Positions 18,972 through 60,479 are shown, numbered from the stretch's first letter. The stretch is 64,000 nucleotides of DNA from Alphaproteobacteria bacterium (GCA_045660045.1 JAZRDB010000013.1:612-64611), one strand, 5' to 3'. The notes: a model not told the origin generated them from the letters alone. Made by a program: numbers and translations.

Positions 18972-19409
18972 TTATCCTTTCTTGTTTAAATGAACCGCTT
19001 TTGATTTCTTTTGAATCTCAATCCTTTTTATATTAGGACTTTTTTGTGGTTTTTGCAAGGTAATAATTAAAAGACCATTTTCCAAGACGGCACCTTTGAT
19101 TTGCATGCCATCGGCCAATACGAAAGATTTAATAAAAGATCTGGCTGCAATGCCTTGATGCAAATAATGGCGATTCGGATCATGTTCTTGACGACCACGA
19201 ACAATCAATTGATTATCTTCTTGTACAATATCTAAATCATCATCAGTATATCCAGCGACAGCCATTGTGATTTCAAAAGTAGTCGTATCCAATTGCTCGA
19301 CGTTGTAAGGCGGAAATGAATCGGCCCCCTTGGCGACTCGGAGTAACATTTGTTCCAATTCGTCAAACCCAACCAAAAAAGGATTGTTAAAGGGTGTTAA
19401 ATTAGGCAT
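18972..19409 (-). CDS. Small heat-shock protein, Hsp20/IbpA family
   Basis: 145 aa alpha-crystallin domain (…FEITMAVAGYTDDDLDIVQEDNQLIVRG…GLLIITL…). Confidence 0.85.
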   Translation of the reverse strand: MPNLTPFNNPFLVGFDELEQMLLRVAKGADSFPPYNVEQLDTTTFEITMAVAGYTDDDLDIVQEDNQLIVRGRQEHDPNRHYLHQGIAARSFIKSFVLADGMQIKGAVLENGLLIITLQKPQKSPNIKRIEIQKKSKAVHLNKKG

Positions 19410-41867: not shown

Positions 41868-44800
41868 ATGCGAAAATTTGTGCGGGTTCTAGTTTTGGTA
41901 GCCACATTAATTGGGATAGCTTGTTTCTCTTCTTTTTCGCAGGCTGCTGATACACCAAAATATGCCTGGGGTGATGTAACGATTAATGGACGAACGATGT
42001 ATATTGTGGATGGAAAGCCTTATTGGGCAGCTAAAGATGGTGGTTTTTATTATGATACACCCAATGATTTTTGGCCATCAGGTTTTGTTTCTGGCATGAC
42101 AAAGGATACGTCATGGAGTTCGGCAAATTTAGGCTCTGGAGCATTGAAAACAACAGGTAAGTTAGGACGAGAGTATCCTGCCACGGCTAAAAAAGGGGTT
42201 ATTTATGATGCGGATGGAAGAACGCCAATAGGAACCTTGGTTGGAGGAAAGGTCAAATTTTGGACATATGGAACGGAAATGGTTCCAAATTCATTCCAAC
42301 CCACTTCAAATCCAACACCGATTCTGGCTCCAGCCCCAACTATTGCTTCTGGTGGTTCGGCGGCAAAAATAGCGGGCGGTTCTAGTGCTAGTACAGCTGG
42401 GCAAGGAAAGCCCATAAGCATTGCAACGGGTTCGAGCACCACAAATGGTGGTAGCAGCGCCCCGAAAACAAGCGCTGGATCAGCTTCATCTGGATCGGCA
42501 AAAGGAAGTACGCCAGCGAGTGGTGCGGCGGCTCCTGCAACACAAGGGGCATCAACCCCTGTTACTCAAGGGGCGACGGTGCCTGCAGCACAGAGAACGA
42601 GTGGTCCAACTCAAGGAGGATCTAGTCAAGTTGCTCAAGGACAAACCGGTTCAGATGCGCCTCAAGGACTTATTAAGGGCCATGATGGACTATATTATTC
42701 GGAAATTTCTTCTGTAAATGATACGAAAGGACGCGCGGCCGCTTCGTTGGAAAATCGGATGATTTTAGGGACAGGTATGACAAAAAGCGAAGCTATTCGA
42801 CACGCGGGAGCAGATGCTGTTGGTTCTGCAGATAATGTTTTTAATAAAGCTGTTAATTCCTTAAAGAGTGATTTTGAGTTTTATGATGCAACCTCGGGCG
42901 ACGTTTTTACTTATGTCCCATCTGAACAAACATGGATGGTTTCACAAACAGAATATGGTGGCGGTATCGATCAGTATGTGCGTAATTCTGGATTGAGTGA
43001 TGATCAACAGAAACTGCTTGTAAGTTTTCCTGCAACAAAATCAACAGCAGAGATTGGTAAGGAGTATAGTAATGCAACAGCGCAACGCGCTCAAGCGATA
43101 GAAGCAATGTGGCAGGAGCGTTTGGGGAGAGTCGACAAAAAGGCAGCAGTGATGCCCGAGGCGGCAACTGATGCCCCAAAAGCTGAGACAACGACGGATG
43201 CTTTCGTTGCTGCGAGAAGTCAAGATACAGCTCCAACCAATACAGCGGCTGCAGCACCAAGTAGCACGGATACATCTGTTTCTACTGAAAAAACACAAGT
43301 TAAGGAGGCGACAGGTGATACTAGACCTACAGGAGACAGAGATGTGATGAGTAGTGGGGTTATTCCCACAAATAAAACTCAATCTGAACCTGTGGGAGGC
43401 ACTGGAAATAGAACGCCATTGGAAACAGAAAAGCCTGTTCCTGGTGCAGAAGAAACGACACCAGCTGGGTCAGCAAATCAAGATACAGATTCGTTGGGGG
43501 CCCCAGCAGGTGGTGATACTGGTGGTAAGCGAGCCCGGAAAACAGAGAGTTCTGAAAAAAAGCAACCTAAAGAGAAAGGGAACGAGTCTTCTGCTGAAGG
43601 CGATAAACGTGGGGGCGGAAGTGCTGAACAAGGAAAAGGAGAGGGGGGACCTAATCAAGAAGGGTCTGAATCTGAAAAAACTGATGGAGGATCTGGTTCT
43701 GGCGATAGTGAGGCACAGCAACCCGACAAACAAAACAGTCCATCTAAAGAGAAAGGGAACGAGTCTTCTGCTGAAGGCGATAAACGTGGGGCCGGAAGTG
43801 CTGAACAAGGAAAAGGAGAGGGGGGACCTAATCAAGAAGGGTCTGAATCTAGAGAAGCTGGAGAAGAAGCAACAGGTGGTGGACGAGGTGCTGCGGCTCA
43901 GGCGACAGGTGCCAAAGTTCCTACGCAATATCTGAGCGAACAAATCAATTCTGATAACATACGGATGTTGGGTTTTGACAATGTGTTTGGTGAAAAGTCG
44001 ATATGGAAGATGGATGGGGATAAGCAACCCAAATTTGATTCAAAGACTGGCACGATTGAATTTACGAATAATACGCAAAGGCAAAGATTGTCGGATGTTC
44101 ATGGGGTAACCGTCAATGAAGATGGTAAGGTTGTGTCAAATGGGGATGCATGGGGTGATGCAACGGTTAACGCGATGAAGAGTTTGAGTAGATGGAGTAG
44201 TGATTTGACGAATTTAAAAAATACTAGTCAAGAAGTACGGACTGCTCAAAGTAAAGTGAATAAGTTGGAACAGGCAGTTGATAAAGCTAAAAGTAAGATC
44301 AAGTATCCTGGCGAAGATGGAGGTGACTCCCGGAGCAAGCTTATTGAAGCCCAAAAAAAGCTAGATGCTGCTGAGGAAGAGTTGAATAAAGCGCAAGAGA
44401 AGCAAGGGGAAGCTAAGGCAAAAACGGAACAGACGATTAATGCTGTAAGAGATGTTGAAAAGGCGGCCAAAGATCGAGCGAACCAAGCTGTTAGCAAAGC
44501 AGCCGAAGGGGATACCTCGCCTGATACCTCTGCTGATGGATCCACCTCTCAAACAGGCGCGTCTACCCCGATGCCTGAGCAGAAGAAAGATTTTGAAACG
44601 TTTCAGGCAAACTTTACTAAAGCGATAGAAGACGGCGATTATGATGCTGCGGATCAATATATCAACGAAGCACAAAAAAATGGCCTTATAAATGACTCCG
44701 AAGCAAACGAAATGAAAAATGCCACAACTCAGGCCAAAAATGCGCAAGGTTTAGCGGGCAAGATGGCTGATGAGGCAGCAGCGAATGAGGCTGATCCAGC

Positions 44801-45599
44801 GAGCAAAGTTGGATCGGTGGATTTGACGGACCCGATACGTTTGGTGCTGGCGATTTTAATACCAACGCTAGCGGAGGATCATTTGACGTTGCGTGGTGAT
44901 ATTAACATTAAAGCTGGCGAAATTGGCGAGGCTGTTGGTGCTGTTGACAGTACGGCATTAGGCACGGACCAAGGTGAAGATGCTAGCCGTGCGACGACGG
45001 TTGTTGCCGGGGCTCAAATGGTGGCACAATTGTTGCAAGCAGTGACGGTGGACTTGAGTCTGCTGAGCGAGGAAGTGAAGTTCGACGAAGAAAAAGATGA
45101 AGAGAAAGAAGAAACGCCGACCTACACAAACGTTGGGACGACAGATTTAACAACGAAGAAGACACAACAAGAAAGTTATCGGGATGAAATAAATGATGAT
45201 TCTTCGGATGAAGATGATGAGGATGCAGAAGCGAAGAAGAAAGCGGAGGAAGAAGAAGCAAAGCGCAAGGCCGAAGAGGAAGAGAAGAAGCAAATCGATG
45301 AAGCGACGAAGAAAACAATTGAAACTCGTCGGGCCGAGTTGATGAAGCAATATGTGAATGGAGCCATTCAAATTGCAGAAGGAATGAATGCGATTTCCAG
45401 CGACTTTGCCTCTCGTGCGGAGGTGCTTTCGGATTTTAGTGAGGGAATCCAAACAGAATCAGCAGGTTTTGGTTTGGCACAAGATGTGGGTAGATATGTG
45501 TTATTTGAGACGTTAAGAGGGTTGGCATTGTCATCCGTTCAAATGGGTGTTCAGGCTTCTCGTCTCTTATTTGAACAGGAGGTTAGCGATGCTGAATAA
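41868..45599 (+). CDS. Large secreted repeat protein (1243 aa); first gene of the T4SS-associated block
   Basis: Signal peptide (MRKFVRVLVLVATLIGIACFSSFSQA) and long Ser/Thr/Gly/Ala low-complexity tracts. It has near-identical 59-aa tandem repeats, coiled-coil segments and a poly-acidic/lysine block (DDSSDEDDEDAEAKKKAEEEEAKRKAEEEEKK). GGGAGG RBS. Confidence 0.6.
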   Translation: MRKFVRVLVLVATLIGIACFSSFSQAADTPKYAWGDVTINGRTMYIVDGKPYWAAKDGGFYYDTPNDFWPSGFVSGMTKDTSWSSANLGSGALKTTGKLGREYPATAKKGVIYDADGRTPIGTLVGGKVKFWTYGTEMVPNSFQPTSNPTPILAPAPTIASGGSAAKIAGGSSASTAGQGKPISIATGSSTTNGGSSAPKTSAGSASSGSAKGSTPASGAAAPATQGASTPVTQGATVPAAQRTSGPTQGGSSQVAQGQTGSDAPQGLIKGHDGLYYSEISSVNDTKGRAAASLENRMILGTGMTKSEAIRHAGADAVGSADNVFNKAVNSLKSDFEFYDATSGDVFTYVPSEQTWMVSQTEYGGGIDQYVRNSGLSDDQQKLLVSFPATKSTAEIGKEYSNATAQRAQAIEAMWQERLGRVDKKAAVMPEAATDAPKAETTTDAFVAARSQDTAPTNTAAAAPSSTDTSVSTEKTQVKEATGDTRPTGDRDVMSSGVIPTNKTQSEPVGGTGNRTPLETEKPVPGAEETTPAGSANQDTDSLGAPAGGDTGGKRARKTESSEKKQPKEKGNESSAEGDKRGGGSAEQGKGEGGPNQEGSESEKTDGGSGSGDSEAQQPDKQNSPSKEKGNESSAEGDKRGAGSAEQGKGEGGPNQEGSESREAGEEATGGGRGAAAQATGAKVPTQYLSEQINSDNIRMLGFDNVFGEKSIWKMDGDKQPKFDSKTGTIEFTNNTQRQRLSDVHGVTVNEDGKVVSNGDAWGDATVNAMKSLSRWSSDLTNLKNTSQEVRTAQSKVNKLEQAVDKAKSKIKYPGEDGGDSRSKLIEAQKKLDAAEEELNKAQEKQGEAKAKTEQTINAVRDVEKAAKDRANQAVSKAAEGDTSPDTSADGSTSQTGASTPMPEQKKDFETFQANFTKAIEDGDYDAADQYINEAQKNGLINDSEANEMKNATTQAKNAQGLAGKMADEAAANEADPASKVGSVDLTDPIRLVLAILIPTLAEDHLTLRGDINIKAGEIGEAVGAVDSTALGTDQGEDASRATTVVAGAQMVAQLLQAVTVDLSLLSEEVKFDEEKDEEKEETPTYTNVGTTDLTTKKTQQESYRDEINDDSSDEDDEDAEAKKKAEEEEAKRKAEEEEKKQIDEATKKTIETRRAELMKQYVNGAIQIAEGMNAISSDFASRAEVLSDFSEGIQTESAGFGLAQDVGRYVLFETLRGLALSSVQMGVQASRLLFEQEVSDAE
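43567..43850 (+). repeat. Tandem direct repeat inside the 1243-aa ORF (two ~107-bp copies, 177-bp period, 1 mismatch)
   Basis: Copy 1 at 43567-43673 and copy 2 at 43744-43850 are identical except gggggcgg/ggggccgg. The 177-bp period is in frame and encodes KEKGNESSAEGDKRG(G/A)GSAEQGKGEGGPNQEGSES. Confidence 0.9.
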
Positions 45600-46668
45600 A
45601 ACACTAACAGTGCTATGTGCAGGAGCTTTATTGAGCACCACGATGTTGATGCCGGTGTCATCCGCTTGGGCGGAAGGAACGTGGCAAAAGGGCGGTTTGG
45701 CAACCAACCAGGTATCCGGAGGAACAGCAAAGGCACAGAAAACTATTACGGATGTCTTGGCATATTGGGGATTACTCTCAAACAGCATCTTATTTGCGAC
45801 ATCTTGGATACCAATACACTTTTTACCTGGTATTGTGTGTACTTGGGCTACTATTATTCCCGCATGTAGAGCATACCTTGCGGGTGGTTCTACTCAGCAT
45901 GGCTTGAATATTGATGTTGCAGGTGCGGCATTGGATGGGGTGTTGTTGTATGATGCAATGCATAAAAAGGCTGTATGGAGTGAAGATATTCCTAATTTGG
46001 AGGCCCAGATTCGTCAGATTGGAAGCGCCGCTGATTTAGAGCAAGAATGTGAAGATGATGAAGAGGGGAGCTGTAATGCAACAAATGCAACATTAGATAA
46101 GACAGAAGTGTACATTAAAACTCTAAAGAACGTAGGATTGGAAGCAATTGAAGATGTGGCCGGGTCGATATTGAAGACGCCGACAGAGTTGATTAGTGCT
46201 GGCCCTTACATTCAAGAAGGTTTTGGTTCTGAGGTTGAAGGTATTGATGTGAGTAAAAGTGTCGGTAAAAAGACATCAAGTGGTACCATCTTGTGGAGCG
46301 ATTATTTGCCCGATGAAAACGACAATACAACGAATAATGGTACACGCACTACGACTGCGGTTAAAAAGGAACGAACAGAAACAGAATTAAACGATATTAA
46401 GGATCGCAAGTTGGCGCATTTACAATTGACAGGCACGGCTGGAGTAGCGCGTGCGGATATGGGTGCGACAGTGGCAAGATCCGAGAAAGCAGCGTTTGAT
46501 CGATTAAGTTCATATGTGGGGTCGGGTGATGGATTGATTGCCAATATTAAGGTTTTAACTGGTTTAGATTTAACCTTGAGTCAACGATTGAATACGCTGA
46601 ATATGTTACAAGGTCAACAAGTGGCAAACGATGCGGCAAGCGCGCTACAGTTTGTGGAAACCAAATAG
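45589..46668 (+). CDS. Secreted protein 1 of 5 (359 aa), T4SS-associated candidate
   Basis: Start at the ATG at 45589 behind a perfect AGGAGG RBS. Signal peptide MLNKTLTVLCAGALLSTTMLMPVSSAWA. Contains a hydrophobic segment and an acidic/Cys segment. The start overlaps the upstream stop. Confidence 0.5.
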   Translation: MLNKTLTVLCAGALLSTTMLMPVSSAWAEGTWQKGGLATNQVSGGTAKAQKTITDVLAYWGLLSNSILFATSWIPIHFLPGIVCTWATIIPACRAYLAGGSTQHGLNIDVAGAALDGVLLYDAMHKKAVWSEDIPNLEAQIRQIGSAADLEQECEDDEEGSCNATNATLDKTEVYIKTLKNVGLEAIEDVAGSILKTPTELISAGPYIQEGFGSEVEGIDVSKSVGKKTSSGTILWSDYLPDENDNTTNNGTRTTTAVKKERTETELNDIKDRKLAHLQLTGTAGVARADMGATVARSEKAAFDRLSSYVGSGDGLIANIKVLTGLDLTLSQRLNTLNMLQGQQVANDAASALQFVETK

Positions 46669-46677
46669 GGGGCAGGG

Positions 46678-47589
46678 ATGAGATTGAAAAAAGTTTTAAT
46701 TATATGTTTTGTTTTTTGTTTAATCTGGCAACCTTCTGTTGGATTTTCAGCGTTTATGTGGAAACCAAATTTTTATCAAAGTCTTATGGAAACGATTGTT
46801 GGATTTTTGGCACGTGAATGGAATCGGCACACAGAAACCATTCACTATGATGTGACTAATGGTTTGGAAAAAATTAAGTCCAATATTGGGATGTATCGTG
46901 ATAAAGGTGATTGTGGTATTTCTGCAACGGGGAATTCGGGATGTGACTTGACAACGCCCGAACAAGGGGCTGAAGAGGATGCAGCTATGGATGCTGAAGC
47001 GGCAGTGATTCCAGATAGTACGATTGCGATTATTACTGAAAGTGAGGATGACGGGACAATTACGCTGGATGGCAAAAGCGATAAGGAGGAAAGCAAAAAC
47101 GAAAAAGATGATACAATTGGCAGCTATGTGGTTGGTAAAAAGGGAGATAAATTTGATCAGGTGCGTGCAAACGTGACCGAGTATATCTTTATTTCTACTA
47201 AAGAAAATGCTGAGGATGTGGATGCCGATTGTCGATGCAACAAGGGAACGGGAACGGTTTGTGAAGCGTCCGAATGTGCTCAACAACGTCAAAATGATGC
47301 TTTGTATCAGGCTTCTTTGGGCGCGTCCAGTACGGCGGATTTCAATTTACAACAAATGGATAAGCGTTACCAAAACGTCACAAAGGCCGTTTCCGAAATC
47401 AATGAAGTGAGTACAATTGCGGATTTTGTGGGTAAGATGGGGCGGTTGTCTGTTTACGCATCGGATGCGGTGGCAAATATGATGACTTTGCAAACACATG
47501 ATTTACGGGCGCAATCTTACCGTAATTTGGTGTTTGGTGGAATTAATCCGGTTGATTTGTCCAAATTAGGCAAAGGAGATAAAAAATGA
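46678..47589 (+). CDS. Secreted protein 2 of 5 (303 aa)
   Basis: Signal peptide MRLKKVLIICFVFCLIWQPSVGFSAF and an acidic middle region, with a helical C-terminal region reminiscent of VirB5/TrbJ-type proteins. Confidence 0.5.
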   Translation: MRLKKVLIICFVFCLIWQPSVGFSAFMWKPNFYQSLMETIVGFLAREWNRHTETIHYDVTNGLEKIKSNIGMYRDKGDCGISATGNSGCDLTTPEQGAEEDAAMDAEAAVIPDSTIAIITESEDDGTITLDGKSDKEESKNEKDDTIGSYVVGKKGDKFDQVRANVTEYIFISTKENAEDVDADCRCNKGTGTVCEASECAQQRQNDALYQASLGASSTADFNLQQMDKRYQNVTKAVSEINEVSTIADFVGKMGRLSVYASDAVANMMTLQTHDLRAQSYRNLVFGGINPVDLSKLGKGDKK

Positions 47590-48365
47590 GAAGATTTTTT
47601 GGGGTGATGGCTGTAATTGTTTGTTTGCTGTGTGGTAGGAGCGTGAGAGCCGTTGAAGAGATGGCGAATATGTGGACGCCCATCCCTATAGTGGATCCAG
47701 TTATGATTGGTGATTCAATCCGAGGACTTACTGCTAGTATTTTGGCATTAACAAAAGCAGGACCTGAGCCAGAATTGGGGGCTGTTTTGAATGTTCAACA
47801 ACAAGAAGTTGGTGCTTTGGAAGATGGAGATGAGTCTTACCGTGTGGATGAGGGAACAGGATCTTCGGATGGATCTGGTGATTTGGCAATTTCTGCTTAT
47901 GAGTATATGAAAGAGAAGGTATTTACAGATTCCAAAAAGACGCCTTATGCACCATTAAACCGAAAATTGTCGAATGGAGCCGATATGAAGAAGGTGGTCA
48001 AGGAAATGTTCTTTATAGAAAATGAAGCAGATAATACGGAAGCAAAACAGGCCGAAATTGTGAAAAACAGGACGGAATATTTAACGACCGTTGGTAAAGA
48101 ATATACAAGATTGGCTTATGAAATGCACAAAAAAATTGCTGATGATATGTCAGCGGTTAGTGCAGATATCAACGGAAATGGTTCTATTGGTGCAGTTGCA
48201 GGTATGGATCAAACATGGAAGGCTGTCAATAAGGCGTTGATTGCAGATATCGGAATGCAAATTCAATTGATGGAGTTGGATGCGGCGAAATTTTTATCTG
48301 TTCAACCGATCATGATTATGTCGGAGAATCGTCCAGAAACGAGTAATCAAGGATCCAATGATTAG
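47586..48365 (+). CDS. Secreted protein 3 of 5 (259 aa)
   Basis: Signal peptide MRRFFGVMAVIVCLLCGRSVRA. The start overlaps the upstream stop (ATGA). Confidence 0.5.
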   Translation: MRRFFGVMAVIVCLLCGRSVRAVEEMANMWTPIPIVDPVMIGDSIRGLTASILALTKAGPEPELGAVLNVQQQEVGALEDGDESYRVDEGTGSSDGSGDLAISAYEYMKEKVFTDSKKTPYAPLNRKLSNGADMKKVVKEMFFIENEADNTEAKQAEIVKNRTEYLTTVGKEYTRLAYEMHKKIADDMSAVSADINGNGSIGAVAGMDQTWKAVNKALIADIGMQIQLMELDAAKFLSVQPIMIMSENRPETSNQGSND

Positions 48366-48375
48366 GAGGTATGTG

Positions 48376-49512
48376 ATGAAAAAGTTATTATTAGGTTCGT
48401 GTATCCTTTCTTGCTTGTTGTTAGTGGAAATAGGTGGATATGCAACAGCTGCAGACAGTGTTGCGTCGGACAGCAAAACAACGGGCGCATCGACAAGCCG
48501 TGCAACACAATACACCGATGCAAACAGTGGTTATGTGAAAAATTCTTCAGAGGGGATGAATAAAACAAAAAATAATCCGAAAAGCGAAGAAGGTGCGGAT
48601 CCTGTGTCAAAAACGGCAAAAGATGCTGATTATTCGCCAGATGCAGGGAATAAAGCCGCTCAAGTTGATATGGGAATTTCAATTGCTTCTGCGGCGTTAG
48701 GTGTTGTAGAAGCTATTATAGGTGCAAGCTTAGACCAGATGATAAGAGAATGGGTTACGACTGAAGTGTTAAGCATTGCAGTGAGCCCTGAAGTTCCTCT
48801 TCATAACGAATCAATAGCTTTTGGTTGGGGACTTCAATTTAACCCAATTGCAACCGCCGTTACCCTTGGGCATGCGGCTGTAAATAAATTTATGCGAGAT
48901 GCGACAAATATTACAGCTTCGTTCACTGGGGCTGAAGGTTTTGTGACAGATAAATGGGTGGGGCCTCATCCAAGGAATACAACAACGGCCATTATGGGGG
49001 ATATTAGTGTTACATCCGAGAAATTTGATGCGTTGACATTTGATCCAAAAGAATACGAAGGTTTGAAAGATGCTGATAAAGCTTCTGCGCGCCAGTTGAT
49101 GGATTATCGGTCTGAGCAGTTAATTCAGGATCAACGTTCATTGTCAAATGTGGCTACTGCGCAATGGGGTATTTTGTATCGTGCACAACAACGTTCTATC
49201 AAAGGATTGGCCGGTGCATTGGAATTGAAGTCTCAATTGACAGCACTGGGTGAGATCGAAAAAAAGATTTCGGCTGATTATAAAAATAAACCAAGCGCTT
49301 TGAATACGGTGGCTTCACGTCGTGCTTTATATGATGCCTTATTGTTATTAAAAATGAATGTAATGGCTGCGCGTACAAAATTGCGTTCGGAAACTTTGGA
49401 ATTGGATTTCAAGCCGATGACAAGGGAGCCTGAAATTATGGAGGACGATGAAGATCCAACCCCTCAGAATGTACCGGCTGGTCCACCTTTGTCACCAAAG
49501 GAAACTCAGTAG
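48376..49512 (+). CDS. Secreted protein 4 of 5 (378 aa)
   Basis: ATG at 48376 behind an AGGAGG RBS. Signal peptide MKKLLLGSCILSCLLLVEIGGYATA. Confidence 0.5.
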   Translation: MKKLLLGSCILSCLLLVEIGGYATAADSVASDSKTTGASTSRATQYTDANSGYVKNSSEGMNKTKNNPKSEEGADPVSKTAKDADYSPDAGNKAAQVDMGISIASAALGVVEAIIGASLDQMIREWVTTEVLSIAVSPEVPLHNESIAFGWGLQFNPIATAVTLGHAAVNKFMRDATNITASFTGAEGFVTDKWVGPHPRNTTTAIMGDISVTSEKFDALTFDPKEYEGLKDADKASARQLMDYRSEQLIQDQRSLSNVATAQWGILYRAQQRSIKGLAGALELKSQLTALGEIEKKISADYKNKPSALNTVASRRALYDALLLLKMNVMAARTKLRSETLELDFKPMTREPEIMEDDEDPTPQNVPAGPPLSPKETQ

Positions 49513-49527
49513 TAAGGGAGAAAGCTC

Positions 49528-50691
49528 ATGAAAAGAATATTGTTTTTTGGCGTGTGTTTTGTTGCTTTGTTTAGTACAACAGCTGAAGCGTTGCGCTTTG
49601 GTACGACGCCAGTTGTGCCGATTGAAATGAATACCTTAACGAAGTTTTTGCCGTCACATAATGAGGCTTTGGATAAAGCCTTAGAAGTACATAATTTGAT
49701 GACGGAATTGCCGTCTATACAAACTATGGCCGAGCAGCAAGAAAAGATGAAAAAAGAATCTCGTAAGATGAAGAAATATTTCGAGAACTTATTGAAATGC
49801 AATGAAAAGCGTTTTGGTCGTTTTAAAAATTCAAAAGAGATTTTGAAAAAGGTACGGGCCGCATATCAAGAACGCACGAAAGATTTAAAAGATGACGAGG
49901 GATATTATGCAGAAGACAGTATTGTACCTCGTTCTTTGGCTGAACGTGGCTATCTATGGGATAAAAAAAGGGACATTGAACAAGAAATCATGACGGATGC
50001 TTTGACCAATGGCCGTAAGTGGGGCGGTGAGTTGGTTAACAGAAAAAAACAAGATGTGCCAGAAGATATGAGAATGAAGATGACTGGTACTGGCTTAGAA
50101 GAGCTGATGCTAGCAGAAGATAGTACAAAAAATGCAGATGTTGCAGAAATGGATATGGATAAGACCTTGAAGCAAATGCAAGAATCCTTTATGAAGCGGT
50201 TGGCTGGTGTTGGATTGACTTTTCCGGAATTTAATCCGGCCCAAACGACGGATATCAGCAAAGTTCGCAAAGAATTGAAAGAGTTAAAAGATCAATATAT
50301 TGTTGAGGCAAAAGAATATATTGTTAAGTTGGATGAACAAGATGCAGCGCACCCACGAGCGGTAGCAAAACGCGCGGCAAGAACACGTAATAAGGCGCGA
50401 GTTTTAACGAATGTGAAGGAACAATTCCCAGAGGCATTTGCCGAGATGGAACAATTTGATCAACAAACACCGCAGCAACAGCAACTGGCTGTTATTAATG
50501 CGTTGGAGAAAGATGCAAATGGAACAGTTTATTTGACCGAAACAAATGCATTAGAGGTTGATCAACGTATCAGCGAGGCAAAAGCAAATAAAGCGATGTT
50601 GAAAACTTTTACCGATATGGCGGATGATATGTTGGAAGAAATGCGTTCAAAAAGGCCAGAGCAAGAATTTGATTTCAGTGTTTGCTCATAA
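49528..50691 (+). CDS. Secreted protein 5 of 5 (387 aa, Lys/Glu-rich coiled coil)
   Basis: Signal peptide MKRILFFGVCFVALFSTTAEA. Highly charged helical protein. Confidence 0.5.
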   Translation: MKRILFFGVCFVALFSTTAEALRFGTTPVVPIEMNTLTKFLPSHNEALDKALEVHNLMTELPSIQTMAEQQEKMKKESRKMKKYFENLLKCNEKRFGRFKNSKEILKKVRAAYQERTKDLKDDEGYYAEDSIVPRSLAERGYLWDKKRDIEQEIMTDALTNGRKWGGELVNRKKQDVPEDMRMKMTGTGLEELMLAEDSTKNADVAEMDMDKTLKQMQESFMKRLAGVGLTFPEFNPAQTTDISKVRKELKELKDQYIVEAKEYIVKLDEQDAAHPRAVAKRAARTRNKARVLTNVKEQFPEAFAEMEQFDQQTPQQQQLAVINALEKDANGTVYLTETNALEVDQRISEAKANKAMLKTFTDMADDMLEEMRSKRPEQEFDFSVCS

Positions 50692-50702
50692 GGAGAATTT
50701 GA

Positions 50703-51332
50703 ATGGCCAATTCAGGAAGAACACCTTGGCAATTGACACGCCTGCTGATGATTCTTTGTTGGCTATTGTGGATTATAACATTTTTTATAACGGTCACTTT
50801 GTTTCAGGCTGTTCTGCAGATTCACGTTGTATCGCAAGTTCTTCAAAACGTGGAAAAAAGCTTTATGTGGTTTAGCCAAGATTTAGTTCGAGCCACGCCG
50901 TTGAATGTTGTTGATCGGGGGCGTTTGGATGAAATGTTGGTACGGTATTATTTGGAAATGAGGTATTCTGTGATTCCTGATCGAGCCGAAATGGAACATC
51001 GTTGGGGTGAGAATGGTATTGTGGCATATTTGTCCAGCCCTGCTGAATATAAGAATTTTAAACCAAATTCAAGTTTTTTTGACAAGGTTGATAATATGCA
51101 ACCGAGTGTGGTGGATATTTTGAAAGTGGATCGCAAAGGTACCTATTTTACTGTTGACTTCGACGTCTATACTTTCGATGGATCCACAAATTGGAGAAAA
51201 GAACCACGGCGCGTTGTGGTACAATATACCTATGCATCGGGGCGTAAGTTGTTGGGGAAATCAATATCAAATCCATTTGGTTTTATTGTAACGCGGGTGG
51301 ATGAATCTGACAGAAAATCGGTGACGCAGTAA
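50703..51332 (+). CDS. virB8: Type IV secretion system protein VirB8 (copy a)
   Basis: 209 aa with a short cytoplasmic N-terminus, one TM helix (LLMILCWLLWIITFFITVTLF) and a periplasmic NTF2-like domain with VRYYLEMRYS and …VVVQYTY… motifs. Confidence 0.7.
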   Translation: MANSGRTPWQLTRLLMILCWLLWIITFFITVTLFQAVLQIHVVSQVLQNVEKSFMWFSQDLVRATPLNVVDRGRLDEMLVRYYLEMRYSVIPDRAEMEHRWGENGIVAYLSSPAEYKNFKPNSSFFDKVDNMQPSVVDILKVDRKGTYFTVDFDVYTFDGSTNWRKEPRRVVVQYTYASGRKLLGKSISNPFGFIVTRVDESDRKSVTQ

Positions 51333-51401
51333 TTTTTTAATTGATAAAATTATTTAAAGTGTTAAAATGAAAATTATGAAGGGATAACAGAAAGGGTGAA
51401 A

Positions 51402-51578
51402 ATGCAAAAAATAGTTTATACATGTTTGGCTGTAGCAGCCATTGTTTTGGGGGCTTGTGGAACGATTTATGAAAAAGCACCGGTTGGAATTGGCACGGAA
51501 TATTCCGAGTTGAAAAAATCCCCTTGTGCATGTTTGGAGTTAAAGAAAGCACCAGAAGTGCCAGAATGGTTCTCGTAA
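51402..51578 (+). CDS. virB7: VirB7-like small lipoprotein
   Basis: 58 aa with lipobox IVLGAC. Its size and its position between two virB8 genes and upstream of virB9 match rvh-type loci. Confidence 0.5.
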   Translation: MQKIVYTCLAVAAIVLGACGTIYEKAPVGIGTEYSELKKSPCACLELKKAPEVPEWFS

Positions 51579-51594
51579 ATTAAAGTGAGGATGT

Positions 51595-52302
51595 ATGGCG
51601 GATCAAGAACAAACGTCTTCTCATCCACGCAATGCGCGTGAGGTTTTGCAAGAAGAGCGCTATCTTTGGATGGCGCGTGCGTTTGTTGTGATGATGGTTT
51701 TGGCCATTATTTGTGATGTGATTTTGTTGATCGCTTTGGCAAATGTGACGCCTGTGTTACGTATTCAGCCATTTTATTTGGAAATTCAAAACAAAGACCA
51801 ACAAATTGTTTCGGTAAAACGTCCCTCGCTTGAAACATTGAATTCGGATACCTTAAAAGAATCTTTGGTTCGTCAGTATATCTTGTCGCGTTTTGGTGTG
51901 GGGTCTGATCTGACGGAACTGGAGGAAAGATGGGGACCCAAAGGGCCTGTGTTTTGGATGAGTGATCAATCTGTGTATGATGAATTTGTTCAAAAACAAT
52001 CTGTTCCTGCTCAAAATAAAGCTCGTAAAGATAATTTTATTCGTGATGTGCGTGTGTTAAGTGTGAACAAAACGCATGATGGTGGGCCGATGGGATCGGA
52101 TATGTGGCAGGCTGAATTGGAATTTCAAGATACCGACAGAACAACCACCAAACCGATTATTTCTAATTGTGTGGCAAATATGGCCACTGCTTTTCGTCCA
52201 ACAAAACCCGGTTTGACATGGTCAGATCGTCTTAAAAATCCACTTGGTTTTGTTATGTTGGATTTTGGTATTAAGTGTACCCAACAAAAAACGAAAAAAT
52301 AA
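51595..52302 (+). CDS. virB8: Type IV secretion system protein VirB8 (copy b)
   Basis: 235 aa with a TM helix (FVVMMVLAIICDVILLIALANV) and an NTF2-like domain (…LVRQYILSRFGVG…WQAELEFQD…). Confidence 0.7.
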   Translation: MADQEQTSSHPRNAREVLQEERYLWMARAFVVMMVLAIICDVILLIALANVTPVLRIQPFYLEIQNKDQQIVSVKRPSLETLNSDTLKESLVRQYILSRFGVGSDLTELEERWGPKGPVFWMSDQSVYDEFVQKQSVPAQNKARKDNFIRDVRVLSVNKTHDGGPMGSDMWQAELEFQDTDRTTTKPIISNCVANMATAFRPTKPGLTWSDRLKNPLGFVMLDFGIKCTQQKTKK

Positions 52303-52377
52303 TATTTTTTTACTGGACTTTCTTTTTGTTTTTAGATAAGCTGAAATAAAGCGGTGTCTAGACATAAGGAGGAACCG

Positions 52378-54054
52378 GTGAAAAAAAAGATATTTTTTAG
52401 GGGAGTTTTGCTTGTTTTAACAGGGGTTTTAGGGGCCTTTGCTTTGCCAGCTGTTGCTCAAATGAATTTACCAACAGATCCTCAAGCTCAACAAGTAGCA
52501 GATGCTATTGCTGGCGCTTCGGGGGAATATGATGAGGTGAATTTGGATTACATCCACCCACTTGGTATGCAACAAAAAGCATGGAATAATCCTTTGGCAC
52601 ATATGGGATCTGGACAAAGTAAACCAGGTTATTCGAAATATAATTGGACACCAGACACTGTGTTGCCTGTGCGTTTGCGTGAAGGAATGATGACTTTGAT
52701 CAATTTGCCAACATGGGAGTTGATTGAAAAAGTTCATATTGGCGCGCCGGAATCATTTAATGGGGAAGTTGTTTCTCCAAACTCAATGCTTTTATATGCT
52801 GATCCTTCGTATTTGGGCGTGGATGGAAATATGATTATTTTTGGTCGATCCGGCAATCGTTATGTGTTCTATTTGCGTAGTGAGACATTTAACACAGATA
52901 AGATTACACAATCTGTTGTGGATGTGTTGGTTGGACCACGTTGGACACCCGTTGCGGATGGGGGACAAATGGTTAATGGCAGTGGCGCTTCTTCTATGGC
53001 TTCAATGCCTTTAATGGCAGCTGGTTCACCGATTTCGCGCGGTGTCAGTGGAGGAAGTTCTGCAATGGCAGTTAATTTGGCAGACGAATGGAAAAATAGC
53101 GTGCCAATGGATCCAGAAGCATTGAAGTTTGATTTGGATATGTTTTTACCAAATCCAGATGATGTAGATATTGCCCCAGACAATGTGTGGCGTGATAATA
53201 TCTTCACATACATTGATTTGGGACCAAAGGCATTAACAATGGTACAACGACCAGTTGTGAGTTTGATTGTTCAAGATACAGAGGTGCCCGTCGGATTTAG
53301 AACACGTGGTCCGAACAGCCGTTTGATTGTTGTAGAAGCTATTGGTGATTTGGTCTTGCGAAATGGCCAAAAAGTGATTTGTATTAAATTGCGTCGTGAT
53401 CCCGCGGCTGGTTTGGAATATACCGATTATTCCGGCTTTAATGAAAAACCATATGCTTATAACCAGCAATTACCTGTTCGGGGTCAAGATTTGCCGAACC
53501 CAGAAGTAACGTTGTATGGTGGTACTGTGTTACATGGTCAAAATCCATATGCTCCAGCGCAAAATGGTGGCACAATGAACTTGGCTTATGCCACAGAAAC
53601 AGGTGGTATGAATCCGTATGCGGGTGCAATTAACCCATATTGTGATGATACAACGGGGGCTAATCGTTGTGGTGGTACAGCCGCATGGCAACCAATTCAC
53701 GCCATTCCAAGTAATGTGCGTAATTCGTCTGCAGCCCATGCAAATATTGATGCAATTCAAGCAAATCGAAATGTGATTATGCCAATTGCCGCAAAAGAAA
53801 ATATTGCATTGGAGTTTGGTACAGCTGCCGAAATCGCGGATTTGGAGAAATTGTGGGAACAGATTTATTCCAACAATGCTGATTTATTGGCTGGATATGA
53901 TCCATATTATTCCGCAGATACATCAGCAACGGGTGATATGGTTGATTTGTTCCGTTTGCGTGTTGGGACTGTCAAAGATGCCGAAACGGGTGATGCGTTA
54001 TGTCGGAAATTGGGGCGTCGCGGTTATTCATGTTCGGTGGTCAGAATTAAATAG
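52378..54054 (+). CDS. virB9: Type IV secretion system protein VirB9 with a Gly/Ser-rich insertion and a C-terminal SPOR-like peptidoglycan-binding domain
   Basis: GTG start at 52378 behind an AAGGAGG RBS gives the signal peptide (V)KKKIFFRGVLLVLTGVLGAFALPAVAQ; the ORF track starts at 52354. It has a VirB9/CagX N-terminal domain (…TLINLPTWELIEKVHIG…RYVFYLRS…) and C-terminal domain (…FTYIDLGPKALTMVQRPVVSLIVQD…ICIKLRR). A ~200-aa extension follows, ending in a SPOR-like motif (DLFRLRVGTVKDAETGDALCRKLGRRGYSCSVVRI). Confidence 0.75.
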   Translation: MKKKIFFRGVLLVLTGVLGAFALPAVAQMNLPTDPQAQQVADAIAGASGEYDEVNLDYIHPLGMQQKAWNNPLAHMGSGQSKPGYSKYNWTPDTVLPVRLREGMMTLINLPTWELIEKVHIGAPESFNGEVVSPNSMLLYADPSYLGVDGNMIIFGRSGNRYVFYLRSETFNTDKITQSVVDVLVGPRWTPVADGGQMVNGSGASSMASMPLMAAGSPISRGVSGGSSAMAVNLADEWKNSVPMDPEALKFDLDMFLPNPDDVDIAPDNVWRDNIFTYIDLGPKALTMVQRPVVSLIVQDTEVPVGFRTRGPNSRLIVVEAIGDLVLRNGQKVICIKLRRDPAAGLEYTDYSGFNEKPYAYNQQLPVRGQDLPNPEVTLYGGTVLHGQNPYAPAQNGGTMNLAYATETGGMNPYAGAINPYCDDTTGANRCGGTAAWQPIHAIPSNVRNSSAAHANIDAIQANRNVIMPIAAKENIALEFGTAAEIADLEKLWEQIYSNNADLLAGYDPYYSADTSATGDMVDLFRLRVGTVKDAETGDALCRKLGRRGYSCSVVRIK

Positions 54055-54062
54055 GGTGTAGT

Positions 54063-57000
54063 ATGGCTGGTAGTCACGAGAGTTTATCAGAGCAATCAAG
54101 ACGTAGAACCTCATGGATTTTATCTGTGTTGGGGTTGATTGTGTTAATTCTCTTTGTGGCGGTTTTGTGCTCGATGCGCAAAAAAAGCACTCAGGTTGTG
54201 CAACGCGAGGATCGTCCAAGTTTTGTTGTTCAATCAACATTCGGAGATGACTCAGATTTCAGTGGAACATTACCTGAATTTGGTGTGCGTAATGCCCAAT
54301 TAGTGGTTACGCCTGATAATGTTGATTTGTCACAGGTTGTTTTGGGATCTCAAGCAGAAGCTGCCTTGGTATTGCGCGCTGAAAATGGTCCTTTAGTCTT
54401 TTTGCAAAAATATCTTGCAGAAGCGCCAGAAGGTGGCTTTATGTTGACTGGTCCTTGTATGGAAAAAACACAATTAGAAGAGGGCGAGGAATGTTTATTG
54501 AAAGTAACTTGGGCACCTATTACAGTTCAAACTATTCAAAACACATTGACAATTGTATGGCGAGAAGATAATGCTCGTGTGTTTCAAGATGAAAGAACGC
54601 AGATTCAATTGAAAGCCAGCTCGACAGATTCCAAGGAATGTGTGTGCTGCGAAATTGAAAAAGACAAAGATCCAAAGGTGCCACGTAAGGTAGTTGGCAT
54701 TGATGGTCAAGAGCGTGAATTAAAAGATGGCGAAAAAGTTGTTGGCGAAGTTATTTTGGATGAAGAGGGAAATGTTGTCGCGATTGTTGAGCCAGAACGT
54801 GTTGCTTTGGGCTTGAACAACGAATATTTGGGCCGTGTGACGGATCGTCGGACGGTTGAAGATAAAAATGGCGAAGTGCTAGGACGGTTATTGGGAGATG
54901 ACACGCTGGTTGATTCTGAATTTAACGTCCTGGGTGCCGCTGTCCCATTGGTTTCTGTGTTGGATGCTCAAGGCGTTGTTATTGGGAAGATGGTGGCCGA
55001 TGATGATGGAGCTCGTGTTGTGGATGCGGAAGGAAATGTTATTGGTACACCTCGTGTAGATAAATCGGTGGTGGATAAAGCTGGTTTCCAAATTGGTATG
55101 TTACGTGATTGGGGCGCAGCGTTGGATTTATCGGGTAATTACATGGGTGTGATTTTACCAACAGCCGCGGTTATTGGTACAGATAAAAAGATTATGGGCT
55201 ACATCCAACAAAACGGTTTTGTCACAAATGATGCAGGCGCTTTGGTGGGCGGAGTGGTCCCCAAAGGTGCGGGTGTTGGAACTGGATGTCGTTCATATGG
55301 AACAGTTGCATTAACGGGCCAAGTCAAAGATACATATGGTCAAGTGATTGGTCGTGTGTTATTGGATGGGGCTGTTGTTGATACGAATTTCAACGAAATC
55401 GGTTCTGTTGTGAATCAAGGTTTGATTGTCAACATGAAGGGAGATGTTGTTGGTTTTGTCAATTCTGAAGGGAAAGGGGTTGATGGTAAAGGTAATTTGA
55501 TGGGCTGTGTTTCGCCAAATGGCATGGTGGCTGCTGGGAAAAAGGTTGTTGGTGGTGTGATGCAAAAAGGATATGTAACAGGTGAAACTTGTGGTGTTCT
55601 TGGTTCTGTTTATCCAAATGCTCAGGTGATGTCTGCCGAGCTACGTGAGATTGGTAAGGTGCGTGCTGATGGGTATGTCATTAATGGTAATAACAAAAGA
55701 ATAGGAGTTGTTGTGCCGCATGGAACAGTTTTGGCTGAAGGATGTCGTTTGGTTGGCGTGATTTCTGTCACTGGACAAGTATTGAATCAACAAAATATGT
55801 CTGTTGGGTGTATTAATATGGAGAAGAAAGCGATTGATACCGAGGGACGAGAAGTCGGCAAAATTACGCCAACAGGCCCTGTTTTGGCAGCAGATGGTTC
55901 TTTGGTTGGTCGTGCACGGTATGATGGTCGCATTGTTGATAAAACAGGCAAGATTATTGATTGCGTGAGTCCAGAAGGTACAGGAGTTGGAACCAAACGG
56001 GGCGTTGTTTTGGATGAAAATGGTTTGCCAACAGGATGGACTGCTTTGGCTGGGAAGTGTTATAATGATCGCAACGAAGAAGTAGGGACAATCGCTTTTA
56101 ACGGATGGGTTTCGGATAAAGAAGGTAAAATGATCGGTTTTATGCCTGCAGATGGTGTTGTATTTGGATTGGATGGTGTGGTCTTAGGAAGCTATAATCA
56201 ATTGATGGGAACTGCAACCGATACAAAAGGTGATCCGCTGGGACGTGTGATGCCGGATGGAACTGTGTTAGATTCAGATGGGCATAAGATTTTGGGATCT
56301 TTAATTCCTGAAAGTGCAACGTTTCTTAGTTTGGATGGCTCTGTTTTAGGAACGTTAAATTATGAAGGTCGATTATTAAATGAAACAGGACAATCTGCAG
56401 GGCGTGTTTTATCTGATGGTGCCGTGTATAATGCCGAAAACGTTTTAATTGGTGGCGTGATTAGATCTGGGATTGTTTTGGCGGCTAATGGATCAGAGGT
56501 TGGATTTGCCAATGTCAAAGGGGATGTTTTGTCAAAAGGAACACGTATTGCCAATTTATTGCCCAATGGATTGGCTGTGACGCCGGATAATCGAGTGTTA
56601 GGTCGTTTGTGGGATAATATGACTGTTGCCGTGTCGGCTGGTGGTGTGATTGGCCCAGTTGTGCTGCGCGCGACTTCTGGCGATAACTCGACATATCAGG
56701 CTGCCGTGTATGATAGAAATGGTAGTTATGTTGGAGCGATGTCTGGCTATGGTGTTTTGTTGAACAGTGATGGGCGCTTGGGCGGCATTGCTTTCCCTGT
56801 CACAATGGTTGTTAATATGGACCATGAATTAATTGGTTGGGTTGGCTTTAGAGGGATGGTGATAAATGCAGAAGGACAAGTCATTGGTCAATTAAGTCAA
56901 AATGGTTTAGTGATGAACTCGACAGGAGCGATTGTTGGAACAGTATTATCTAAAGGAACGGTTGTTGATGGGCGTGGTGGTTTTGTGGGGCGTGTAGCTG

Positions 57001-60000
57001 CTAATGGTGGTATCTATAATGGGTCTGGCGCAACAGGATTGTTTGTCGGTCCGCAAACCTATATCTTTAATGAAGATATGTCCATCAATGCTCGTGTGTT
57101 GAAAGATGGTTTGGCGATTGATTCCTCTGGTCAAGTGTTGGGTTGGACTGGTTTTACTGGGCAAATAATGAATTCAGAACGGGCATTAGGGGCGGTTGCC
57201 TTGGATAATCGTGTGACAAGTACCGAAGGTGAACTGGTGGCAAGCTATGTTCCATTGGGTGCGCCATCTATGCATGACGACGAAAAAATGTGCGCGGTTG
57301 TTGCAGAAAATGGGACGGCGGTTTCGGCAAGCGGACGTGCTATCGGAACAGTTATGGCTCCTGATTATGTGGTGCAAAACAATATTATTGTGGGACGCAT
57401 TCATCCAAGCTCGTTGTTTGTTCGTAATTTGACAAATTCAAGTTTAATGGGAATTGCAGATTTAGATGGTATGGTATATCGTGCCAATACGGCTCGACAA
57501 TCTGGTACGATGGAAATGAACGATTTGGTTGTTGATTCAACGAAAAAAGTTGTTGCAGGTTTGGTTGGTACAGGTTTTGCAACATCCAACAACTTAAAGT
57601 CTTTGGGACGTGAAAATTATACTGGTTCTGTATGGTTAGCTGGCAAAGTGATAGGATCAGCGTCGGCAATTAATGTGGTTGAACAAGGTGATTCAATAAC
57701 AGGTGGCATTTTTGAACCCGCGGTTATTGTGGATCGTAATGGACTTGAAATCGGTCGTTCGGATGCGTTGGCGGCTGTAACAGATAAGACGGGCAAAAAG
57801 ATTGCTTCTCGGATGGCATTTTATTCCGCTTTAACTCCAGAAACTTTGTGGGCTGGTGGTCCTATTCGAACGGGTGCCGTGATTGATGACTATGCGCGCA
57901 AAGTTGGGACGGTTGCAGGAGATGGTTTAATTATGGCCGGAAGCTCATTAAAAGGACGCATCTTGTCGGATGGTAGTGCTGCGGCAGTTGCCAATAAATC
58001 TGTGTATAATCCCATGCCTTATACGGGGCATTTAGTGACCCAAGGTTTGCCGATGGGATATAATAAGGCAGTTTTGGGTCGGACCACTATTCAAGGAGAT
58101 TTATTGGATGCCTCGGATAAGGTTATTTTCCAAGAACTGGACGATGCTTCCATCTTGGGCAAAGCAAGGCCGTTGGAAGGTATGGTATTGCCATTCAGAC
58201 CGGCCGTTTCTCAAAATAATACATTATTGGGTGTGTTGGACGGAAGTGGAAAAGTTGTTGATCACGCAGGCAATGAGATTGGGCCAGTTGTGAGCAATGG
58301 TGCGGTCAAGGGCGATCATGAGTTGAAAATTTTAGGATCCTTAATTCCAGAAACATTGGTGGTAAATGAATGTAAGGTGATTGGTCAAACGTCTTATAAT
58401 GGTGAAGTCATTAATGGTCAAGGTAATACAATTGGTCGTATGCAGGCGGATCAGTGGGCTGAAGATCCTCAGGGCAAACGTTTGGGCCGCTCTGTGCGCC
58501 ATGGCCCAGTGATGAGTCCAACTCATCCAGCGATTTATTTGGGTCGCACAATGCCAGATTCAACTGTTGTTGATACAGATGGTGCAATGTTGGGATGTGC
58601 ACAAAATGATAAGATTGTGAAAGATGCCAATGGTAATATGTTGGGCGCTGTGATTGACCGTGGTCCCGTGTTTAACAAAGCAGGCGATATGTATGGTCGT
58701 GTGGACGCCATGGGACGTGTGATTGGCGTGGATAATGAAGTGTTGGGATACATTATCGGAGATGGAACGGATCGTGCTTTTGATTTCAATGGAAATGAAA
58801 TCGGTCGGATGGTTTCTAAAACAGATGAAATTTTATTTGATGAAAATGGTAAATTTATCGGTACGTTTGATTTAGAGGGATATCGTAAAGATGCAGACGG
58901 TAACATTTTGTTCCGCGTGGGTAAAGATGGTACACTTTATGATAAGTGGGGTAATCCAATCGGCAAATTGGGCGATGGCATGGATTACATATACTTGTAT
59001 GATATGCAAGATAAAATTGTGGGTCGCTTGAATGGGTGTGATTTGCAAAAATTGCCAGGTAATGAAAAAATGGGTTCTATTTTGGCGAATGGTGATATTC
59101 GTGATCCAAATAATGAATTAATTTTAACAACCAGTGCGGATGGTAAGGTGTATAACCCAGATGGGACACAATACGGTCGCTTTGCCGGTGTTGGATTGGA
59201 TTTGCGCCGTTGTGGTTTGTCTTCTAGTAATGTTGGAGCTGGTCGCAAAATTACATGGGGAACAAAACAATACAACATTGATGATGGTGGTATGATTACA
59301 GACAATACGGGAAGAGTGGTTGGTAGTTGGGATGCCGTGAATAATCGTCCTTATATTTGGGATACCGCAGGGGAACAAAATGAACTACGAGAACCACCTC
59401 CTGCACCAAAAGTTCCAAAGATTCCATCTGAAGTTCGTGCTACATTTGACGATTTGCAAAAGAAGCGTCGTGCCCAGATGAAGGAAAAAATAGGTGGTCA
59501 ACCTGCAATCATTCCTGGCCCTGAAATTTTGGCTCGTGCCAAAGGCCACAAGGATAAAGATTGGTCCTCGGTTGGAACCAATAAGAGTAATATTTCTACA
59601 TGGCCAGTGGATATGTCCCGAGTGTTGTTAGCTGATAAAGCAGTACCGGCTGTTTTGGTGCGTTCAATAGATTCTCGTTATCCAACAGTGCCTGTGACAG
59701 CTATTGTAGAGCGTCATATTTATGCGGAAGCCGGTCGTAATATCTTGATCCCAGCTGGTAGCCGTTTGATTGGCCAAGCAACATCTAAAACTGGTATCTT
59801 TGGTTCTGATCAGGCCGCTAAGATTGACATATCTTGGAAACGATTGATTAGACCAGATGGTGCTGCGTTTAAGTTTGAAGCCGTGTCTGGTGATGCACAA
59901 GGGCGTGGTGGCGTGGCTGCCTATTTGGATTTGCAGTTGATGAAAAAGTTTATGTTGCCGTTCGTGTCTACAATTGGGCAATGGCCAATCTTGAAGGCAA

Positions 60001-60470: not shown

Positions 60471-60479
60471 GGAGCTAGC

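Follow-up and report, generated by a model that had tools for sequence, protein, structure and literature searches.

Introduction

Among the described type IV secretion systems (T4SSs) that are closest to the one considered here, the Cag system of Helicobacter pylori has both a giant VirB10 (CagY) and exported subunits that are specific to the system. In the Trw system of Bartonella, trwJ/VirB5, trwI, trwH, and trwL/VirB2 are amplified in tandem; these copies are recent and recognizable, and are co-amplified with virB6 and virB7. In the Rickettsiales vir homolog (rvh) T4SS, two VirB8 copies stand on either side of a small gene for the VirB7 lipoprotein, and VirB9-VirB10-VirB11 come next (PMC2653234); its reported hallmarks include 'no VirB5 analog', duplicated VirB4 and VirB9, and multicopy VirB6 (PMC11077975). 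Because the rvh T4SSs of Rickettsiales and their relatives are described as having no VirB5 analog, it is unclear how they contact target cells. Here we describe an rvh-like T4SS locus in a stretch of 64,000 nucleotides (nt) from an Alphaproteobacteria bacterium (GCA_045660045.1, JAZRDB010000013.1:612-64611; hereafter the window, with positions counted from its first letter), in which an array of six genes for predicted exported proteins, p0 to p5, directly precedes virB8.

The VirB8a-VirB7-VirB8b group and the succeeding VirB9-VirB10-VirB11 of the rvh system are both present in the window. The locus differs from rvh in that its virB8 copies lie on the same strand, its VirB10 has four times the size, and its first VirB8 gene, virB8a, is preceded by the six genes of the exported array. 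We think it reasonably probable that p0-p5 form a lineage-specific, mainly α-helical accessory set of the rvh-like T4SS, predicted to be exported by the Sec pathway and including VirB5-like paralogs. The broader reading, that these are dedicated exported accessory proteins of the T4SS, we hold with considerable confidence. The array may supply VirB5 analogs, which would break the rvh hallmark of having none.

Results

Gene structure of the array

The region 41868-61463 (+ strand) holds twelve co-oriented genes, p0-p5 and then virB8a-virB7-virB8b-virB9-virB10-virB11. The first array gene, p0 (41868-45599), encodes a protein of 1243 amino acids (aa) with a signal peptide; its N-terminal and middle parts form a long region of low complexity that bears repeats. 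Two tandem repeats of ~59 aa (window 43569-43920; KEKGNESSAEGDKRG.GSAEQGKGEGGPNQEGSES…) lie within a stretch rich in Ser, Gly, Glu, and Lys. The products of the other five genes are likewise predicted to be exported. p1 (45589-46668, 359 aa) has a conserved C-terminal helical domain (…LDLxLAQRLNxxNMLQGQ…), p2 (46678-47589, 303 aa) is Cys-rich, and p3 (47586-48365, 259 aa) is all-helical, with a predicted mature N-terminus that includes …IPIVDPVMIGDSIRGL…. In p4 (48376-49512, 378 aa) a C-terminal helix pair is strongly conserved (…YRAQQR…ASRR…AARxRxRAETLELDF), and p5 (49528-50691, 387 aa), in which 34% of the residues are charged, is the most conserved member of the array.

From p0 to virB8a the gaps or overlaps between adjacent genes span only -11 to +15 nt, with p0 overlapping p1 by 11 nt and p2 overlapping p3 by 4 nt, and every start has a ribosome-binding site (RBS) of the GGAG type; for p1-p5 the site (GGAG/AGGAGG type) lies 6-10 nt 5' of the start. 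The start of p4 at 48376 has an AGGAGG site and is also the start in the gene call of the relative L009. Independent gene calls in the closest relative give identical starts for p1-p5 and lengths of 358, 305, 262, 355, and 387 aa. An earlier note on this DNA, made from the sequence of the window, had described five tightly packed open reading frames (ORFs) with good RBSs upstream of virB8. Its coordinates, lengths, and starts are correct, since the ORFs, spacing, and RBSs agree with them and the gene calls of the nearest relative reproduce them. The five ORFs stand, but the membership has to be widened to a sixth, p0, which has a signal peptide, overlaps p1, and is syntenic everywhere. The same note had placed the array in one operon with virB8; the genes do form one co-oriented, tight block with virB8-B11, and co-transcription is suggested by their spacing.

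Conservation of the array beside the T4SS core

A VirB8b scan, with one genome per species, found eight loci, all in metagenome-assembled genomes named 'Alphaproteobacteria bacterium' from goat abomasum, rumen, and similar samples. In all eight of these GTDB loci the p0-p5 order upstream of virB8a is kept (tblastn). A closer JGI contig, with independent gene calls, also carries the array, and the order recurs in about 20 related rumen or gut metagenome contigs with differing upstream neighbors. When the p3 family was searched against 5.8 billion clusters, 80 matches were obtained, all unannotated and without Pfam domains; an exhaustive p3 profile search of 1.84 billion representatives gave 81 related clusters, again all unannotated. 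The five p3-related clusters whose context was checked all sit in arrays like that of the window. Distant p3 relatives (E 1e-14 to 1e-21) occupy the third position from the end of an array that precedes VirB8a-B7-B8b-B9-giant B10, and the contexts of close and distant relatives alike show 6-8 unannotated genes and, after them, VirB8a-VirB7-VirB8b-VirB9-giant VirB10. The array adjoins virB8a in the relatives examined, and its co-occurrence with the T4SS core is strict.

The housekeeping gene upstream varies among loci, being infC, alaS or, in a more distant clade, folD. Since the upstream neighbor in that clade is folD and not infC, the array moves together with the T4SS. With the VirB7 alignment as its anchor, a metagenome scan added 80 loci and distinguished three architectures. 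Clade 1, to which the window belongs, has p0-p1-p2-p3-p4-p5, and clade 2, the sister clade, has [x]-a-b-c-p2-p3-p4-p5. The third clade, which includes human-gut contigs, has C9-C8-C7-giant (1.3-2.0k aa)-virB8a. p5 always lies directly upstream of virB8a; it is recognizable in clades 1 and 2 (E 1e-29 to 1e-40), and a p5-like module lies inside the third-clade giants at the same position upstream of virB8a. Some VirB7-containing loci (L054-L057) have housekeeping genes in place of the array, so the array is not a universal housekeeping feature.

In the third clade (L062-L082, L086, L087, and L094) the exported giant that adjoins virB8a is preceded by proteins of ~448, ~232, and ~404 aa. The ~448- and ~232-aa proteins have mature N-termini like those of VirB5/TrbJ, for example LIIDAPTL and IFDIMAKVQ.

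Searches against known families

The six array families belong to no curated family. p0-p5 gave no matches to Pfam or NCBIfam, the NCBIfam scans yielding noise only, and these scans detected no enzymatic or eukaryote-like domain in the array proteins. No similarity to Cag3, CagM, or CagT, in sequence or in fold, appeared in any search. Among the array proteins of the window an Arg-Gly-Asp (RGD) motif is present in p0 only and is not conserved in its relatives, and no shared motif at the extreme C-terminus was seen in the family alignments. Literature searches turned up no description of these gut Alphaproteobacteria or of their T4SS.

Paralogy within the array

BLASTP among the six array proteins gave no significant pair. 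The family alignments, with signal peptides removed, were then compared all-against-all with hhalign, using reversed alignments as decoys (171 pairs, maximum score 23.7). The C-terminal ~100 aa of p0 (p0C) scored 48-54 (89-94%) against sister-clade family a, 34-36 against p3, 28 against p2, and 26-28 against p1. p1 scored 41.6 (74%) against family a. The clade-2 p2 scored 40 (68%) against p3, and the merged p2 family scored 45 against p3 (82%; 78% in a separate run). p3 scored 36 against third-clade C7, and families a and b, like b and c, were linked at 33. The above-decoy links align the C-terminal ~100 residues in register; after the shared pattern T-x-E-x3-I-x2-R-[RQ]… come a helix, a loop and, as the last element, an amphipathic helix. 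By these profile comparisons p0C, p1, p2, and p3 belong to one paralogous superfamily.

p4 is orthologous between clades 1 and 2 (hhalign 92.6, 97.6%), but it has no above-decoy link to p0-p3, p5, or VirB5. Since neither p4 nor p5 is linked to p0C, p1, p2, and p3, the paralogy is limited to these four. The suggestion in the earlier note that several array members share C-terminal helices and are paralogous is thus borne out by hhalign for p1, p2, and p3, with p0C in addition, and fails for p4 and p5; the motif it quoted from p4 lies outside the shared domain. A score of 108 between p3 and clade-2 p4 was rejected because only low-occupancy, low-complexity tails were aligned. A single-linkage cluster that joined p3 with clade-2 p4 was also set aside, as it depends on one p4-like protein of clade 2 and probably on the same low-complexity tails.

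Relation to VirB5

Genuine VirB5 sequences (TrwJ of R388, TraC of R46, and three of the Ti type) were expanded to 52 Ti-type and 61 TrwJ/TraC-type sequences. A crude profile of five VirB5 sequences, which had given an N-terminal match to third-clade C7 only, was replaced by these deeper profiles. Against the 61-sequence TrwJ/TraC profile, p2 obtained hhalign scores of 33.1 for each of two subfamilies and 37.4 when these were merged (53%, E 1.4e-4); the probabilities ranged from 28 to 53%, and 77 reversed decoys reached at most 28.5. In this alignment the N-terminal '…fD…' of p2 falls on 'IPVFD', and its C-terminal helix falls in register on 'In.t.D.KAI.eLQARI..Eqa.iqNE..KLQ'. No array family matched the Ti-type VirB5 profile. 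As a positive control, the Ti-type and TrwJ/TraC-type VirB5 profiles scored 46.9 (87%) against each other. p2 is therefore the best VirB5-like candidate by sequence profile.

Among 66 array proteins from 13 genomes, two matched PF07996, the VirB5 family of Pfam, at E ≤ 0.1, and this is the only Pfam family that matched more than one of them. The clade-2 family b protein L011:7213-7899 matched it over nearly its full length with E 7.7e-4 and 20.3 bits, which is sub-threshold. None of 55 third-clade proteins matched PF07996. Among genuine VirB5 proteins, those of the Ti type (Agrobacterium, Rhizobium, and Mesorhizobium) have no precomputed PF07996 match, some having PF13605 instead; only the TrwJ/TraC type carries PF07996.

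Several features of VirB5/TrwJ/TraC proteins (PF07996; TraC, 1R8I; TrwJ in the R388 stalk, 7O3V) recur in the array. The proteins are exported by Sec (predicted here) and are encoded in a T4SS operon upstream of virB8. With 220-240 aa, VirB5 is close in size to p3 and p2. The p3 model is all-helical, as VirB5 is, and its helices follow a VirB5-like order: one long helix at the N-terminus, then several short ones grouped together, then two long ones at the C-terminus. The mature N-termini share a hydrophobic-x-V-x-D motif: in the array families IPIVDP (p3), the sister-clade GIVVQDP, FVVTDV, and QIVLDPG, and also IFDIMA resemble GIPVFD, QFVVSDP, and GIIVSNP of true VirB5s. There is in addition the weak profile similarity of p2 and of a sister-clade paralog. 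The array differs from VirB5 in having four paralogous copies, N-terminal or internal extensions (up to 1000 aa, in p0), no match to a curated model, and no adjacent virB6, virB2, or virB4. On balance, we lean slightly toward a very distant homology of p0C, p1, p2, and p3 to VirB5. The VirB5/TrbJ relationship raised in the earlier note is accordingly plausible, the best evidence being the above-decoy score of p2 against TrwJ/TraC; no protein of the window reached the threshold of a curated VirB5 or TrbJ model.

Export signals and predicted structure

All six N-termini have 1-3 Lys or Arg residues, a hydrophobic core of 12-20 residues (KD19 1.5-2.2), and a small-x-small site. Signal peptides were scored across orthologs with a simple heuristic, not a dedicated predictor, and between 10/13 and 23/26 orthologs per array family were positive. 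The controls behaved as expected, with SurA positive in 6/6 cases and the cytoplasmic proteins FolD, XerD, and a DEAD-box protein positive in 0/13 together. This supports the earlier claim that each of the proteins carries a signal peptide. A further hydrophobic segment is found in p1 (residues 66-93) and in p4 (residues 97-120).

The AlphaFold model of p3, built with a 77-sequence alignment, has a predicted local distance difference test (pLDDT) score of 74; its long N-terminal helix is followed by three short helices and then by two of 40 residues. A single-sequence model of p5 is helical, but unreliable (pLDDT 49). The description of the proteins as largely α-helical thus holds at usable confidence for p3 alone, and at low confidence for p5. 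In a Foldseek search with the p3 model, CagL ranked at the top without significance (E about 1.4, TM-score 0.3-0.4), and the structural similarity of p3 to CagL or to the VirB5 fold, a bundle of three helices carrying a small globular helical appendage, is no higher than to generic helical bundles.

Divergence and selection

Amino acid identity and the ratio of nonsynonymous to synonymous substitution rates (dN/dS) were obtained for the window and its closest relative, L009. The core proteins VirB8a, VirB7, VirB8b, and VirB9 are 93-98% identical, with dN/dS of 0.015-0.054. In the array, identity is 88% for p5, 83% for p2, 78% for p1, 77% for p3, and 65% for p4, and dN/dS of p1-p5 is 0.06-0.15 (p5 0.06, p1 0.09). 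p0 is only 36% identical to its L009 ortholog, with dN/dS of 0.34, while VirB8b is 98% identical. The dN of p1-p5 is 2-30x that of VirB8a/B7/B8b/B9, and that of p1-p4 is 4-30x. The array genes are thus real and constrained, and they are evolving much faster than the T4SS core, as is expected for exposed components.

Multiple diverged VirB5-type copies in one T4SS locus, diverging fast, would liken the array to the Bartonella Trw system and are consistent with variant surface structures. In contrast to Trw, the paralogs here are ancient (BLAST is silent among them), each has its own conserved series of orthologs, and they are not co-amplified with other vir genes.

A separate observation is that dS is 1.0-1.9 in the array genes and 0.45-0.68 in the adjacent core genes (window 41868-54054 compared with L009). 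Saturation or alignment effects may account for the higher dS of the array, as may recombination and allelic exchange restricted to the array genes.

The T4SS core genes and their surroundings

Downstream of the array, virB8a (50703-51332, + strand, as for all genes of the block) encodes a divergent VirB8 paralog with an N-terminal transmembrane anchor. Its residues 23-198 match the Pfam VirB8 model with E 0.0081 and 16.5 bits, below the cut-off of 23.2, and BLASTP relates it to VirB8b with 2e-8. The virB7-like lipoprotein gene (51396-51578) encodes a protein of 58-60 aa with the lipobox L-[GA]-A-C; its motif SELKKSPCACL, which contains a CxC pair, is invariant across 13 genomes from both clades. 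These genes are followed by virB8b (51595-52302; PF04335, 1.4e-13) and virB9 (52354-54054, 566 aa; PF03524 CagX, 1.2e-14). The long C-terminal extension of VirB9 has a weak match, with E 1e-3 and below cut-off, to the peptidoglycan-binding SPOR domain. virB10 (54063-60470) encodes a giant protein of 2135 aa (beta-flower PF21785, 3.3e-59; TrbI PF03743, 6.8e-26), ~4x the usual size, in which the N-terminal anchor is separated from the TrbI domain by no fewer than four beta-flower repeats; versions of 2136-2430 aa are found in relatives. The virB11 ATPase gene (60480-61463; PF00437, 8.1e-23) is the last T4SS gene of the block.

No virD4 follows virB11; the region 61288-62506 holds one ORF that resembles dUTPase and in its longest reading runs into the virB11 end, and another with an SH3 domain. 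No second VirB9 is present in the 64-kb window. The genes for VirB2, B3, B4, B6, and the coupling protein must lie outside the window. The immediate neighbors of the block are infC upstream and the dut-like ORF downstream, and chromosomal housekeeping genes, for example dnaA, uvrA, htpG, and lepA, surround it; the T4SS is chromosomal, in uncultured gut and rumen Alphaproteobacteria. dnaA (19402-20790, - strand) lies ~20 kb upstream of the array. The guanine-cytosine (GC) skew, low or mixed in the first ~24 kb of the window, is positive throughout the region from ~24 to ~62 kb. These features would fit a T4SS block that lies on the leading strand, close to the origin of chromosomal replication.

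Elsewhere in the window, at 28602-31835 (- strand), a single ORF of 1077 aa combines an LptF/LptG permease (residues 6-352, 4.6e-66) with LptD (residues 650-1011, 2.2e-46). The fusion also occurs in L011-L015 (1075-1088 aa, independent gene calls). A fusion of inner- and outer-membrane components of lipopolysaccharide transport of this kind is unusual.

Discussion

The homology to VirB5, the localization, and the role of the array are what we infer from these results, and a mechanism can be outlined. The array would be co-transcribed with the core genes, judging from the spacing, and its products would be exported to the periplasm via Sec. On the inner-membrane platform the VirB5-like members would form the stalk or tip of the secretion conduit; they would end surface-exposed, touching the target cell, with several fast-evolving paralogs as alternative or heteromeric tips. 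Such exposure at the stalk or tip would explain both the fast evolution and the multiplicity of the paralogs. p5, and perhaps p4, would be a conserved periplasmic partner next to VirB8a.

Several results weigh against an accessory set that includes VirB5-like proteins. Only p2 rose above the decoys with the TrwJ/TraC profile; p0C, p1, p3, p4, p5, and families a, b, and c scored at or below them. After correction for ~40 comparisons the p2 score is only moderately significant, and helical, heptad-patterned proteins can inflate profile scores. p0-p5 had no match to PF07996 at E ≤ 1 (gathering score 24.7 bits), and the NCBIfam VirB5/TrbJ models matched none of the 66 array proteins at E ≤ 0.1. 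Searches of PDB sequences, whether with a single sequence or with a family profile (p1-p5 and sister-clade families a and b), found nothing. p4 and p5 are unplaced, p5 having hhalign links to the third-clade giants only and none to other array families. virB2, virB6, and virB4, which would anchor a pilus or stalk model, are not present in the window, and promoter and terminator scans of the array were at background level and uninformative on co-transcription. The missing PF07996 is weak evidence against VirB5 identity, because genuine Ti-type VirB5s are also without it; together with the positive control of only 87%, this marks the VirB5 family as intrinsically hard to detect.

Could the array instead provide extra subunits of an enlarged outer-membrane or periplasmic core complex? 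Its products would then be analogous to Cag3, CagM, and CagT on CagX/CagY, not pilus-tip or stalk proteins, and would act as a scaffold for the giant, repeat-bearing VirB10. Several features recall the Cag system: CagL, CagI, and CagH are adjacent genes for exported helical proteins, one of them a VirB5 analog; VirB10 is giant and repeat-containing in both systems; and the VirB9 found here matches the Pfam model named 'CagX'. Arrays with intact downstream context precede a VirB10 of 2100-2430 aa with beta-flower repeats, and p5, which always abuts virB8a and is nearly as conserved as the core, has, like p4, no VirB5 signal. Yet the VirB10 repeats are here beta-flower domains, the CagL match is not significant, there is neither a conserved RGD nor a common C-terminal motif, and sequence similarity is absent, also to the three Cag core subunits, whose folds are likewise unmatched. 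The rates of p1-p4 relative to the core are atypical of buried scaffold subunits, and p2 and p3 have VirB5-like signals. We regard an enlarged core of this kind as rather unlikely.

It is similarly improbable, in our judgment, that the array encodes Sec-exported substrates, toxin-like effectors or adhesins that the T4SS would release from the periplasm in two steps, as Ptl does pertussis toxin, or surface adhesins that are merely co-regulated with the system. Such substrates would account for the quick divergence, above all of the repeat-bearing p0, for the number and size of array proteins varying between clades, and for signal peptides on proteins with no homologs outside the lineage. Against this, effector repertoires seldom keep order and orthology across deep clades as p2-p5 do, the domain scans brought up nothing enzymatic or eukaryote-like, and both the paralogy and the weak VirB5 link are signs of machinery. 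The earlier note had also allowed for co-expressed effectors or chaperones, an alternative made less likely by the Sec signal peptides together with strict co-inheritance with the machinery. An array of periplasmic housekeeping proteins that have nothing to do with the T4SS and are only its upstream neighbors would agree with the lack of a functional domain tying it directly to secretion. This last explanation is extremely improbable and is essentially excluded by the synteny pattern: the array stays beside virB8a while infC, folD, and alaS replace one another upstream, all 81 related clusters are unannotated, with each checked context in such an array, and VirB7-containing loci exist without it.

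An accessory set of exported proteins, some of them VirB5-like, is thus the reading we prefer. A more far-reaching possibility, which we regard as doubtful, is that p0-p5 and the giant beta-flower VirB10 together build an appendage, extracellular or periplasmic, of a kind not described before. On this view a heteromeric stalk or tip would consist of four ancient VirB5-derived paralogs plus p4 and p5, the latter two without counterpart in characterized T4SSs, and would represent an independent, Cag-like elaboration of an rvh-type machine, human-gut lineages included.

Whatever their role, the six families are unannotated in public databases, and defining them would improve the annotation of these genomes, which come from uncultured Alphaproteobacteria of ruminant and human gut metagenomes with an essentially unknown biology. 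If the link to VirB5 is true, a sister type of the rvh machine keeps and has multiplied VirB5-like proteins, together with two conserved partners (p4 and p5), and the array would offer specific candidates for the stalk, tip, or adhesin that has been missing.

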